Assembly: GCF_018350175.1 (NCBI RefSeq) | Contig: NC_058373.1 | Span: 73,470,001 to 73,534,000, forward strand | Direction of reading: 5' to 3' | Source of the DNA: Felis catus | Taxonomy: Eukaryota | DNA: 64,000 bases | Shown here: positions 27,047 to 34,853 of the stretch, one piece after another | Layout of the letters: every line of letters begins with the position of its first letter | Position numbering within the stretch: the first letter of the stretch is position 1 | Notes under the pieces: generated by a model | Seen by the model: the letters and a program-made list of their open reading frames with translations, nothing else | Told to the model about the DNA's origin: nothing | The model's database searches: none | Translations under genes and position numbers: made by a program

Positions 27047-27076
<30 letters not shown>
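27047..27076 (+). repeat. Poly(C)30 homopolymer
   Basis: Thirty consecutive C. Confidence 0.9.
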
Positions 27077-27077
<1 letters not shown>

Positions 27078-27314
27078 CCGCCTTGGCATCGAGCACTCCT
27101 CTGGATATTACAGTTCTTCAAGAGCAAGGCCAGATGTAATCCAAGTCTGCTCTCCAAGAATGAAGCCTCTAAGGCTCCAGGTGGGCAGGCTGCACTCCTG
27201 CCTCCCACTGCTAGCAGAGGCATTATCCATCGGTCTGTCTGGATCCACTGAGTTCTCCTCCTTACCCACCTTTCATGTTCTTTTTTCATCCTTGCCCAAA
27301 GGAAGCATCATCAC

Positions 27315-27588: not shown

Positions 27589-27772
27589 TCAGCGGCAGGC
27601 CTTGTTAAACTCTTGGAGGGCCCAGCGCTTGTTCTCAGTTGCCTGCTTGAGTTGAGTGTACTCTTTTACCAGCCTGTCAAACTCCTCCCCAAGGACCTCA
27701 TAGGTGCTTAGGACCTGTCGGGACTTCTCCATGTCCTGCTCTTGTAGGCAGATGGCCCCCTCCAAACGGTCC
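27589..27772 (-). CDS. HAUS4: HAUS4 exon 10, coding part
   Basis: DRLEGAICLQEQDMEKSRQVLSTYEVLGEEFDRLVKEYTQLKQATENKRWALQEFNKACR*; 184 nt. Confidence 0.93.
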
Positions 27773-30700
27773 CTATACACCCGGGGAACAGAAGATACAA
27801 TATAAGGATCTGGCTCCTCAGAAAGTAGACAAGATTATCCAAAAGATACAAAAATGCTGATTGAAACAGGTACATGCACCCCAATGTTTACAGCAGCGCT
27901 ATCAACAATAGCCAAAGTATGGAAAGAGCCCAAATGTCCATCGACAGATGAATAGATAAAGAAGATGTGGTGTGTGTGTGTATACATATATAGTGTAATT
28001 TTAAAAAAAATTTTTAATGTTTATTTATTTTTGATAGAACACAAGGGGGGTAGGAGAAGAGAGAGAGGGAGACCCAGAATCTGAAGCAGGCTCCAGGCCC
28101 TGAGCTGTCAGCACAGAGCCCGACATGGGGCTCGAGCCCATGGACCAAGGAGATCATGACCTAAGCTGAAGTTGGTCGCCCAACCAACTGAGCCACCCAG
28201 GTGCCCCTATATACAGTGTAATATTACTCAGCAATCAAAAAGAATGAAATCTTGCCATCTGCAACAAAGTGAATGGAACTAGAGTGTATTATGCTAAGCA
28301 AAATAAGTCAGAGAAAGACAAATGTCATATGATTTCACTCATATGTGCAATTTAAGAAACAAAACAGATGAACATAGGGTAAAAGAAGGAAAAATAAGAA
28401 AAACAGAAGGGAGGCAAACCATAAGAGACTCTTAAATATAGAGAACAAACTGAGGGTTGCTGGAGGGGAGGTGGGTGGGGGGATGGGCTAAATGGGGGAT
28501 GGGCATTAAGGAGGGCACTTACTGGGATGAGCACTGGGTGTTGTATGTAAGTCATGAATCACTGGATTCTACTCCTGAAACCAATACTACACTGTATGTT
28601 AACTAACTTGAATATAAATTAATAAATTTTTAAAAAAAAGAAAGTAGACAAGAATGTGACCACGTTAAAATGAATAGGTATGGAGAACACAGGACCAGCT
28701 CTAACTGCACCCTGTCCTCAAGAGTTCTTACCTTTTTTTTTTCAAAAAATTTTTTAATGTTTATTTTATTTTTGAGAGAGAGAGAGAGAGAGACAGAGTG
28801 TCAGCAGGGGAAGGGCAGAGAGAGAGGGAGACAGAATCCAAAGCAGGCTCCAGGCTCTGAGCTGTCAGCACAGAGCCCGACGTGGGGCTCGAACTCAGGA
28901 ACCATGAGATCATGACCTGAGCGGAAGTCGGATGCTTAACCGACCGAGCCACCCAGGCACCCCGGGAGTTCTTACCTAATGAGACGATGAACTTCCACTT
29001 TCTCAGTAGTGTAAGTGTCAGACAAGATCTTTAGCTCCTCCATCCTGACAAAGGGAAGAAAGAAATATCAGCCTGATGATCCCTGACAACAGCAAAGTTA
29101 TGAACACAACAGAGAGTACCTGCCTATGGTCAAGGTGTGGGCTAAGCAGTGACAGGACAAGCAAGGTCACTCTGAGTTCCTTAGCAATGTATCTCATCTC
29201 ACAGGAAAGCACCTATTTCAGAAGGCTTTAAAAATAAGACTCAGGAATGGTGAATGCTTATGGGTAATCCAAAGGCTAATACCCACAAGGTGCTAGGCAT
29301 GGTGGAGAGGAAAGACAGATGAGGGTGACGATTGAAGGGGGTGGTGTGTGAGACAGAGTTCCTTGGACCCACAGGGGTCAAAGCTCACCTCAGCTTAAGG
29401 ATCATGGCACTGCACTTGATCTCTAGGTACTGAGCATTGATGCGGTCCAGCTCAGACTGAGTCTTAAGCCGGTGCTCTTGAAGAAGCCTCTGCAGCAAGG
29501 CTAGGCAGCGGAGAAGCACCTGAGCCCCCGGGAGGCAGGAAGAAGAGGGCAAAATCAAAGTCAGTAGTAAAGAAGGCAGATCAGAAACCCTTGTCTTCCT
29601 CAGGGCACCCGGGTGGCTCAGTCGGCTAAGCATCAACGTTGGCTCAGGTCATGATCTCACAGTTCATGAGTTCGAGCCCCACCATCGGGCTCTGTGCTGG
29701 CAGCTCAGAGCCTGGAGCCTGCTTTGTATTCTGTCTTTTTCTCTCTCTGCCCCGCCCCTGCTCACGCTTTGTCTCTCTCTCAAAAATAAATAAACATTAG
29801 AAAAAAAAATTCTTGGCTTCCCCCAAAGTGCCCCTGGGGCCAGGATAAAAGGGGGAGTGGCTATCCCACTGCCCTGACAAACCTGGGAGTAGGTGGCACT
29901 CTTCTTCTCCAGCAGCACCATCTGCTCCTGCTGCTGGCTCTTGGCATCCTGGCATTGCTGCTTCTCACCCACCAGGATCTCTGCCAGTTTCCACACCTTT
30001 GCCGCCTTCAAGGTTTCACTGTCTGAATCTGGGCAAAGAAACAGAGGACTAGACAGGAAAACCCTGACTGCTACTGCCCTTCTGAGGCCATTTTTCAGTG
30101 CCTTATCCCTGATCTAGCTCTACAAATTCTCTCTTCAGGTTTTCTTCTGATGTCCTGTTAAAATGGCCCACTTCTCATAATTAAGTTCTCTTTCCTCTTA
30201 CCTTTATTTTTTATTTTAAAATTTTATTTATTTAAGTAATCTCTACACCCAACGTGGGGCTTGGCCTCACAACCTAGAGATCAAGAGTCACATGCTCTGC
30301 CATCTGAGCCAGCCATGTGCCCCTCGCTCTTACCTTTAATTCCAGATTTGGCCCTTAATTCTTAAGTCAAATAAATAAGATAAGGAGAACACCTATTAGC
30401 TTGAACTTTCCTCCCTATTCCATTCCGATTCTCCTAAGAATGAATTCATCCTTCCCTGTAGCAAGAGGACACTCCCACTTGGTTTTCACACAATTCCTTG
30501 CTTGTATTCTACCAGCAAGGAAAGAACCCTCTCCAGTGCTTCCTAGCTTCTGTCGCAAATCTATAATTCAACAAGTTATTCTCAGAAGAGCAGACCAAGA
30601 GACTGGAAGGTCAGCTGTGGACAGAACAGAGTGCCAGCACTCACCTGAATTGGGGTCATGGTAGCACAGCAGGGTGAAACATTTCTTCTTGAGCTGCTCC

Positions 30701-33700: not shown

Positions 33701-34853
33701 CTGGGATCCTCTGGTTATTCCATAGGTACAAGGGGCTTTCTTTAAAAATTTACATTTATTGGGGCTCCTGGGTGGTTCAGTTGGTTAAGCGACCGACTGC
33801 GGCTCCGGTCATGATCTCGCAGTTTGTGAGTTCGAGCCCCGTGTCGGGCTCTGTGCTGACAGCTCAGAGCCTAGAGCCTGCTTCAGATTCTGTGTCTCCC
33901 CCTCTCTCTAACCCTCCCCATGCTCTGTGTCTCTCCATCTCTCAATAATAAATAAACGTTAAAAAAAATTAAAAATGTATGTTTATTTAGTTTTTGAAAG
34001 AGACAGAGCACAAGTGGCAGAGGGGCAGAGAGAGAGGGAGACACAGAATCCGAAGCAGGCTCCAGGCTCTGAGCGGTCAGCACAGAGCTCGACGTGGGGC
34101 TCGGGCTCACAGACCACAAGATCATGCCTGAGCTGAAGTCAGACGCTCAACCCACTGAGCCACCCAGGCACCCCTTCGGCCTTTCTATCTCTTTTGTCAC
34201 ACGTTTTCTGCTGGGGTCCTCTGTTTTACTCCTACTTACCAAACAATCAAACTTTCATTCTTTGGACCCTCAGAAAGTCCCTTTGAAGAATAAGAAATCT
34301 CCTTTTTCTCCCCTCAGGCACTGAAGGATCAACATGGAAATGGTCAAAATGTAGAAGATTCAAGTTCTTGAAGGATTCAAGATATAGAAAGGGTGTGAGA
34401 TAACGGAAAGAATTCAAGATACGAGACGATATGGAAGCATCTGAGATTTTAGAGTACAAGATATGAGAAAATTCAAGATGCAGGTAGGAAGGAAGCCTTC
34501 ACAGAGTTTCTTGGCCAGCCTTACATTCAGGTTATGCCTGCTAACACAGCATCAGAGCAGCATGAGTTTTTAGTCCACTGCAGGAGCAGACACTTGATAG
34601 GAGCCAGTGTAATATGTTTTCCAATAAGAGAGTATTTAAGAATCTTTATGTATTCTCTAGTTTCCCCCAGAAACTTAGGCTTTTATGTGAGAAACCATAC
34701 TGGTGAACTTTATAAATCCTTTTTATTATAGAAAGCAAGAACCTGGATAAGATCTCTCTGGAGAAGTCATCAAACCTCATTCAAATGGCAGCCCTTACCT
34801 TGTTGGAGTATTTCCATTCCTTCTCCAGGTGAGCAGAAATCCCCGGATGCCAT
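27589..34853 (-). CDS. HAUS4: HAUS augmin-like complex subunit 4 (9 coding exons, 1092 nt, 363 aa)
   Basis: Spliced translation MASGDFCSPGEGMEILQQVCSKQLPPCNLS...KRWALQEFNKACR*; all junctions in phase. Confidence 0.96.
27835..28638 (+). mobile_element. 5'-truncated carnivore LINE-1 with 15-bp TSD in the last HAUS4 intron, with a nested SINE (~28000-28207, -)
   Basis: L1 ORF2 C-terminal motif ACATGCACCCCAATGTTTACAGCAGC plus 3'UTR and A-tail; AGAAAGTAGACAAGA at 27820-27834 and 28639-28653. Confidence 0.9.
28734..28965 (-). mobile_element. Can-SINE inserted at the HAUS4 exon-9 donor
   Basis: TSD GAGTTCTTACCT at 28722-28733 and 28966-28977. Confidence 0.92.
28976..29044 (-). CDS. HAUS4: HAUS4 exon 9
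   Basis: MEELKILSDTYTTEKVEVHRLIR; 69 nt; donor AG|GTAAGA. Confidence 0.93.
29389..29519 (-). CDS. HAUS4: HAUS4 exon 8
   Basis: VLLRCLALLQRLLQEHRLKTQSELDRINAQYLEIKCSAMILKLR; 131 nt. Confidence 0.93.
29602..29808 (+). mobile_element. Can-SINE in HAUS4 intron 7
   Basis: Head, (CT)n and A-tail. Confidence 0.88.
29883..30028 (-). CDS. HAUS4: HAUS4 exon 7
   Basis: SDSETLKAAKVWKLAEILVGEKQQCQDAKSQQQEQMVLLEKKSATYSQ; 146 nt. Confidence 0.93.
30645..30741 (-). CDS. HAUS4: HAUS4 exon 6
   Basis: DFVWMRARLPLEVEEQLKKKCFTLLCYHDPNS; 97 nt. Confidence 0.93.
31698..31832 (-). CDS. HAUS4: HAUS4 exon 5
   Basis: FHETLEQRLLVTELTGLLGPSREKEMPPLLGVEKADLLELMPPSE; 135 nt. Confidence 0.93.
32296..32427 (-). CDS. HAUS4: HAUS4 exon 4
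   Basis: AWKEVRLHKTTWLRSEILQRVIQELLVDYYVKTQDTNLTSEDKK; 132 nt. Confidence 0.93.
32517..32659 (-). CDS. HAUS4: HAUS4 exon 3
   Basis: VCSKQLPPCNLSEKDLLQNPHFSKLLLSLAQHVDESGLSLTLAKEQAQ; 143 nt; AAG acceptor. Confidence 0.9.
32810..34174. mobile_element. Four Can-SINEs in HAUS4 intron 2: 32810-33020 (-), 33164-33370 (+), 33761-33968 (+), 33970-34174 (-)
   Basis: Heads and tails; TSD TAATAAAACTAAGAG around the second copy. Confidence 0.9.
34799..34853 (-). CDS. HAUS4: HAUS4 exon 2, coding part (exon begins at 34875)
   Basis: MASGDFCSPGEGMEILQQ; donor GTAAGG. Confidence 0.92.

Follow-up and report, generated by a model that had tools for sequence, protein, structure and literature searches.

A SINE insertion duplicated the exon-9 splice donor of cat HAUS4, and the second copy is probably a tolerated decoy

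When a retroposon copies a 5′ splice site as it inserts, which of the two identical donors is used? This question is raised by HAUS4 of the domestic cat (Felis catus), in a stretch of 64,000 nucleotides that we analysed as a whole and refer to as the window; positions are those of the window unless a contig is given. The minus-strand gene is HAUS4 (match to human chain 7sqk_D, E = 5e-28; Pfam PF14735). Exons 8–10 joined at the upstream donor (donor 1) give a translation that matches the C-terminal 127 residues of P0012, a UniRef Felidae protein, without a difference; the exon numbering presumes one non-coding first exon. Exon 5 (about 31830–31700, minus strand) is missing from P0012, which is a 318-residue isoform, and 318-residue records occur in many mammals. 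A run of about 30 G residues on the minus strand lies just 3′ of the end of the gene (about 27049–27080).

The 12-mer that contains the exon-9 donor occurs exactly twice in the 64-kb window, in copies that are identical at 12 of 12 positions (repeat family D11, spacing of 244; Table 1). The rough chance of a given 12-mer recurring within 300 nt is 2e-5. Because the recurrence is far beyond chance and the copies flank the head and the A-rich tail of a SINE, we regard them as a true target-site duplication. The initial annotation had described this duplication as the last two exonic bases plus the 5′ splice site, in two exact copies around a sense SINE with GTs 244 nt apart, and we reproduced both the copies and their coordinates. 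It had also placed the insertion essentially at an exon boundary; the donor is indeed duplicated, but in functional terms the element lies at intron position +10/+11, so exon 9 retains its own donor.

Table 1. Features of the HAUS4 locus and of the similar RPL8 insertion
Feature	Position	Strand	Remarks
HAUS4 exon 8	29389..29519	−	131 nt
HAUS4 exon 9	28976..29044	−	69 nt
HAUS4 exon 10, coding part	27589..27772	−	Last exon; 60 residues and stop; exon start 27772
Target-site copy 1, authentic donor	28966..28977	−	Last 2 exon bases and intron +1 to +10; GT at 28975
Target-site copy 2, second donor look-alike	28722..28733	−	GT at 28731
In-frame TAA within the authentic donor	28972..28974	−	Reached by any read-through
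Full-length tRNA-type carnivore SINE, gene sense (focal SINE)	28734..28965	−	Head starts at 28963 after 2 extra bases; CT tract and a decayed tail rich in A
Pair of overlapping AATAAA hexamers within the tail of the SINE	28760..28770	−	Candidate intronic polyadenylation signal
SINE in intron 7, antisense to HAUS4	29602..29810	+	Inverted partner of the focal SINE; repeats I1, I3, I5
Older insertion in intron 9	27820..28653		Own perfect 15-bp target-site duplication (D8); 3′ end that we take to be L1-like
RPL8 case	G000:C46:83329179-83329419 (L146:1380-1620; L146 = G000:C46:83327800-83332200)		

Reading through donor 1 leads at once to a stop, as had been noted from the sequence: translation runs ...HRLIR-stop, and the 60 residues of exon 10 are lost. 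The SINE is not the source of this stop codon, which belongs to the original donor (AG|GTAA) at a phase-2 junction; read-through of the intron therefore meets a stop with or without the SINE. Splicing at the downstream copy (donor 2) would yield a 313-nt exon with its TAA 240 nt 5′ of the last junction. Under the 50-nt rule for NMD such an mRNA is a predicted NMD target, and the computed geometry bears out the conditional claim of the initial annotation that use of the distal donor would give an NMD-type mRNA with a stop about 240 nt before the last junction, or a protein without its last 60 residues.

How long has this arrangement existed? We compared the focal SINE, a tRNA-type carnivore element, with published CanSINE descriptions. 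The head and tail of the focal SINE are common to a high-copy family, with 35 other BLAST matches in the window and 1,079 candidates in the genome; the best paralogue among the 40 candidates scored of these 1,079 is 91% identical. Against a consensus of 213 copies from the window and from fetched loci, the focal SINE differs at 5 of 135 non-CpG sites (3.7%) and at 7 of 24 CpG sites. Its non-CpG divergence ranks low (10% of copies are lower) and its CpG divergence is typical. Given these differences and the 91% identity of the best paralogue, the SINE is no fresh insertion. At a neutral rate of 1–2.5 changes per billion sites per year, its age would be roughly 15–35 million years, with a wide error because the estimate uses five changes, and the insertion would then fall before or early in the felid radiation. 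Of the feliform CanSINE motifs described in the text that accompanies the published alignment figure, that of subfamily I and the A-box change of IIB are absent from the focal SINE, and that of subfamily II is not literally present (PMC4084570).

The flanking 12-bp direct repeat, together with an A-rich 3′ tail and a tRNA-type head, is what an L1-mobilised SINE would show. Its insertion site, TT|AGGT, matches a TT|AAAA-type target only by TT and two purines, and the L1 target motif resembles TT|AAAA. We infer that L1-driven target-primed reverse transcription began at a purine-rich TT|AG.. site whose resemblance to a donor was a matter of chance. An old carnivore SINE would thereby have been inserted ten bases into HAUS4 intron 9, with target-site duplication copying the exon-9 donor.

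Intron 9 had a history of its own. The older insertion within it, which we presume to be L1-like, sits 47 nt 5′ of the exon-10 acceptor and carries a nested SINE (at about 28207–28000) with changes at 10 of 123 non-CpG sites, which makes that SINE more diverged than the focal one. Intron 9 was thus probably already about 960 nt long when the focal SINE arrived, and not the 140 nt that are left when both insertions, which lie near both intron ends, are subtracted. An intron of about 960 nt at that time would favour exon definition and, with it, the upstream donor.

We propose that the second donor is a tolerated, mostly silent decoy and that the own donor of exon 9 does nearly all of the splicing, a reading to which we assign a probability of roughly 0.7. 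The evidence is indirect: the age of the SINE, a felid protein spliced at donor 1 and a precedent in F7 favour a tolerated decoy over a poison switch. P0012, a UniRef record with 4 felid entries, is the single felid-type protein among 154 HAUS4 proteins, and it has the donor 1 junction and a full-length C-terminus. In intron 7 of human F7, downstream copies of the authentic donor are functional, yet splicing passes them by, although the same paper also cites older duplication experiments with opposite results (PMC1557585).

Pairing with the 5′ end of U1 is predicted to be equally strong at the two HAUS4 donors (duplex energies of −9.4 and −9.5 kcal/mol), so donor 2 has no advantage in strength in that model. 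Exon definition would favour the upstream donor, which closes an exon of 69 nt rather than 313 nt. The stretch that separates the donors contains CU tracts and two G-runs (at 28963 and 28954); the G-runs, just 3′ of donor 1, may aid the upstream donor, as may the CU tract and A tail 5′ of donor 2. Reporter experiments showed suppression of the downstream one of two competing donors when CU-rich elements lay between them (PMC1877881). Donor 2 would accordingly be silent or barely used, with rare products cleared by NMD as noise, and the long survival of the insertion may reflect the small cost that it imposes.

The protein set behind this argument (n = 154) drew on the 120 matches listed of 141 and on the 15 members listed of 239 in the main cluster, and its sensitivity for isoforms is therefore low. 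The collections hold cluster representatives only, an NMD isoform would leave little trace in them, and P0012 is itself an annotated protein. Exons 7–10 are present in 129 of the 154 proteins. Exons 7–9 without a normal exon 10 occur in three (P0002, P0053 and P0128), none of which has felid-type residues; P0053, a non-felid record, terminates exactly at the exon-9 read-through stop, which may reflect intron retention or the end of a contig. Retrocopies, which could serve as fossils of isoforms, were not found among the genome matches of P0012: with 12 candidates scored, all 7 matches lie within HAUS4 itself.

Shares of words in sequencing runs were discarded as evidence of expression, fixation or presence in other species. 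In 20 of 24 listed runs, from 14 studies and under several organism labels, 68–93% of 28 sampled words were present, but 99 of the 283 31-mers of the SINE-bearing stretch recur elsewhere in a SINE-rich sample of only 0.3 Mb. Words of the SINE family can explain such shares, which therefore show none of the three.

Predicted folding does not tell the two donors apart: in the local fold both 9-mers are mostly paired (0.003 and 0.001 unpaired). The long-range fold pairs donor 1 within exon 9 but leaves donor 2 half exposed, an outcome that would, if anything, speak against a decoy. Other features also count against a silent second donor. Donor 2 is an exact copy with A at position −3, a base that is favoured in the donor PWM, and in human MLH1 an Alu at +8/+9 abolished normal splicing.

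An intact donor could instead be a leaky one. Donor 2 would then be used without regulation in at least 5% of transcripts, which would carry the SINE within the 313-nt exon, be lost to NMD and lower the output of the gene without controlling it. The intact copy, its equal predicted U1 pairing and a stop 240 nt before the junction would all suit such a leak, and in MLH1 the duplicated donor scored as the better one with two of four prediction tools (PMC7767547). However, no transcript spliced at that donor was recovered in MLH1 (PMC7767547), the upstream donor is chosen in F7 (PMC1557585), and a silencer-like CU tract lies between the HAUS4 donors. We consider a leak of this size unlikely.

The initial annotation had gone further and proposed a possible poison splice choice that could be a lineage-specific dosage control on an augmin subunit. 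In such regulated poison splicing, the choice of donor would be tuned by tissue or cell cycle as a felid-specific control. Its anatomy and its conditional NMD logic stand, but lineage-specific dosage control is without support. Only the geometry and the intact second donor would speak for it. At 3.7% non-CpG divergence a 12-mer should stay intact even in the absence of selection, and among 60 sampled donor-like 9-mers that were duplicated elsewhere, 45 still have identical copies. Regulated poison splicing at HAUS4 is, in our judgement, highly improbable.

Copy 2 can also be read as a recursive splice site (AG|GT), at which the SINE would be removed first as a mini-intron and the ancestral junction rebuilt. 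The AG at 28733–28732 is the first AG past the CT tract of the SINE, and a full donor then follows. Yet purines make up 70% of the 20 nt before this AG, and about 42 nt separate it from the end of the CT tract, which makes a poor acceptor. We rejected this site on the absence of the required polypyrimidine tract directly before AG|GT and regard recursive splicing as having a negligible probability.

Transcripts might, alternatively, end inside the element. Polyadenylation at the SINE tail would produce a composite last exon that escapes NMD and a HAUS4 without its last 60 residues, and the tail offers sense AATAAA hexamers at 28770 and 28765. [quoted passage not shown] The nested intron-9 SINE carries the same hexamers, however, which are hence generic, and no felid-type truncated protein is present among the 154. 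The tail is also decayed and lies between two strong U1 sites, and such sites usually suppress nearby cleavage; we therefore count them against intronic polyadenylation, which we think very unlikely. In the Xenopus model, C-terminal segments of HAUS4 pair with HAUS1 in a four-helix arm, with the extreme ends flexible and unresolved (PMC9512787), and most mammalian HAUS4 records contain the whole of exon 10. Loss of exon 10 on a large scale would probably be costly, which fits a low use of these alternatives.

Beyond the donors themselves, we found a feature that the initial annotation did not contain: the focal SINE and the antisense SINE in intron 7 form an inverted pair (29602–29810 and 28734–28963, with a gap of 640 nt) that brackets exons 8 and 9. 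One arm begins 11 nt past the end of exon 9 and the other about 83 nt ahead of exon 8. The arms are 88–93% complementary in their best blocks; the predicted duplex has an energy of −350 kcal/mol, and the MFE fold contains 199 long-range pairs. Pairing of the arms could loop out exons 8–9 and result in some skipping or in a 200-nt circular RNA. Skipping of the two exons would remove 200 nt and shift the frame into a 24-residue tail that ends in the last exon and is predicted to escape NMD. The short distance between complementary arms, the strong predicted duplex and the tight bracketing are what such a loop-out would call for, TBXT provides a precedent (PMC10901737), and inverted Alu pairs are enriched around skippable exons (PMC13019027). 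But 16 of the 27 full-length SINEs in the window have an inverted partner within 700 nt, so the focal pair is not above local chance, and a strong duplex is predicted for any two SINEs of this kind (−283 for the focal SINE and the other one in intron 9). The frameshifted tail that joins exon 7 to exon 10 occurs in 0 of the 154 HAUS4 proteins, a comparison of low sensitivity. We judge a loop-out to be distinctly improbable.

The two ideas could be merged into a structural switch, in which pairing would cause exons 8–9 to be skipped or circularised and the unpaired state would leave the donors to compete, with NMD as the outcome, such that the dose of an augmin subunit would be tuned in cats only; this would be a long shot. 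The inverted pair is also a candidate for A-to-I editing. Another close inverted pair, two opposite SINEs that lie tail to tail, is present in HAUS4 intron 2 (33761–34174).

If the second donor is a tolerated decoy, are there others like it in this genome? In RPL8, which we located by PF03947, a sense SINE lies directly 3′ of the exon-3 donor; its 12-bp duplication takes in that donor, and the two donors are about 224 nt apart. That element is older and more decayed (73% identity to the focal SINE over 121 nt). A search of the genome with the profile PF00181 gave no match.

Strict SINE heads that follow AGGTRAG number 211 in the genome; the strict head pattern fits 8 of 28 heads in the window and misses the focal SINE and, by eye, the RPL8 element. 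A donor-like motif was duplicated in 60 of 138 sampled SINE target sites, the sample being all 66 loci of one listing and 72 from the first 100 listed of the 211. The 117 open frames found upstream at 89 loci, with 51 of the frames from 38 of the 60 motif-duplicated loci, gave no Pfam match; the HAUS4 control exons gave one in 2 of 2 cases. Most duplicated donor-like sites are therefore not coding exon ends, within a test that is blind to exons that are short or outside Pfam. Insertions at a real coding donor may thus be the minority, a weak result from which we derive no rate.

Two other elements have a similar layout. A shorter SINE-like element in HAUS4 intron 7 (30338–30196, minus strand) has a 12-bp duplication (D6) with AAG|GTAAGA and no exon attached. 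At a further locus (L024; G000:C13:21520906-21523937, minus strand, about 1450–1750 of the reverse complement), a SINE with a duplicated GAG|GTAAGG lies behind a 52-nt exon-like stretch that has a CAG acceptor and no Pfam match.

The HAUS4 insertion is a real retroposon scar of a layout that is already known from other genes; a literature search that covered few subscription papers found no report of it in HAUS4. SINEs are depleted within about 100 bp of exon boundaries (PMC13019027). HAUS4 and RPL8 together suggest that insertions of a small, recurrent class persist close to exon ends, a zone from which SINEs are usually purged. If regulated use of donor 2 or of the inverted pair were shown, a single step would have placed a lineage-specific control on a spindle gene.

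Several known systems share parts of this arrangement. RPL8 exon 3, in the same genome, likewise has a sense SINE behind the donor of a coding exon and a 12-bp duplication; its element is the more decayed of the two. The canine merle SINE in PMEL, another carnivore element, also sits at an exon boundary, where it is flanked by a 15-bp duplication and affects splicing, but it is antisense, lies at an acceptor, acts through a cryptic acceptor and the length of its tail, and is polymorphic with a phenotype (PMC7349775). The AluY/AluSx1 pair of TBXT resembles the HAUS4 pair as an inverted SINE pair around coding exons; in TBXT, skipping is shown and is in frame, whereas HAUS4 would lose two exons out of frame, by prediction only (PMC10901737). 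The VNTR in F7 intron 7 similarly places identical donor copies downstream of the authentic one, yet it is a 37-bp tandem repeat for which upstream-only use was shown experimentally, whereas in HAUS4 the spacer is a 232-nt SINE, the donors are 244 nt apart and preference for the upstream one is predicted (PMC1557585).

The closest human parallel is MLH1 c.588+8_588+9 (intron 7), a truncated AluSx-like insertion in Lynch syndrome with the donor duplicated at the 3′ end of the Alu (PMC7767547). As in HAUS4, a SINE entered a few bases into the intron, and through the target-site duplication the end of the exon and its donor reappear 3′ of the element; the authors weighed use of the duplicated donor as well as termination at the tail (PMC7767547). 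Unlike HAUS4, in which the element is full-length and old and the gene intact, the 115-bp allele in MLH1 is new and pathogenic, and normal splicing was abolished. HAUS4 thus offers a clean experiment of nature on the competition between identical donors with a SINE in between, and a harmless-looking counterpart of the pathogenic MLH1 allele.
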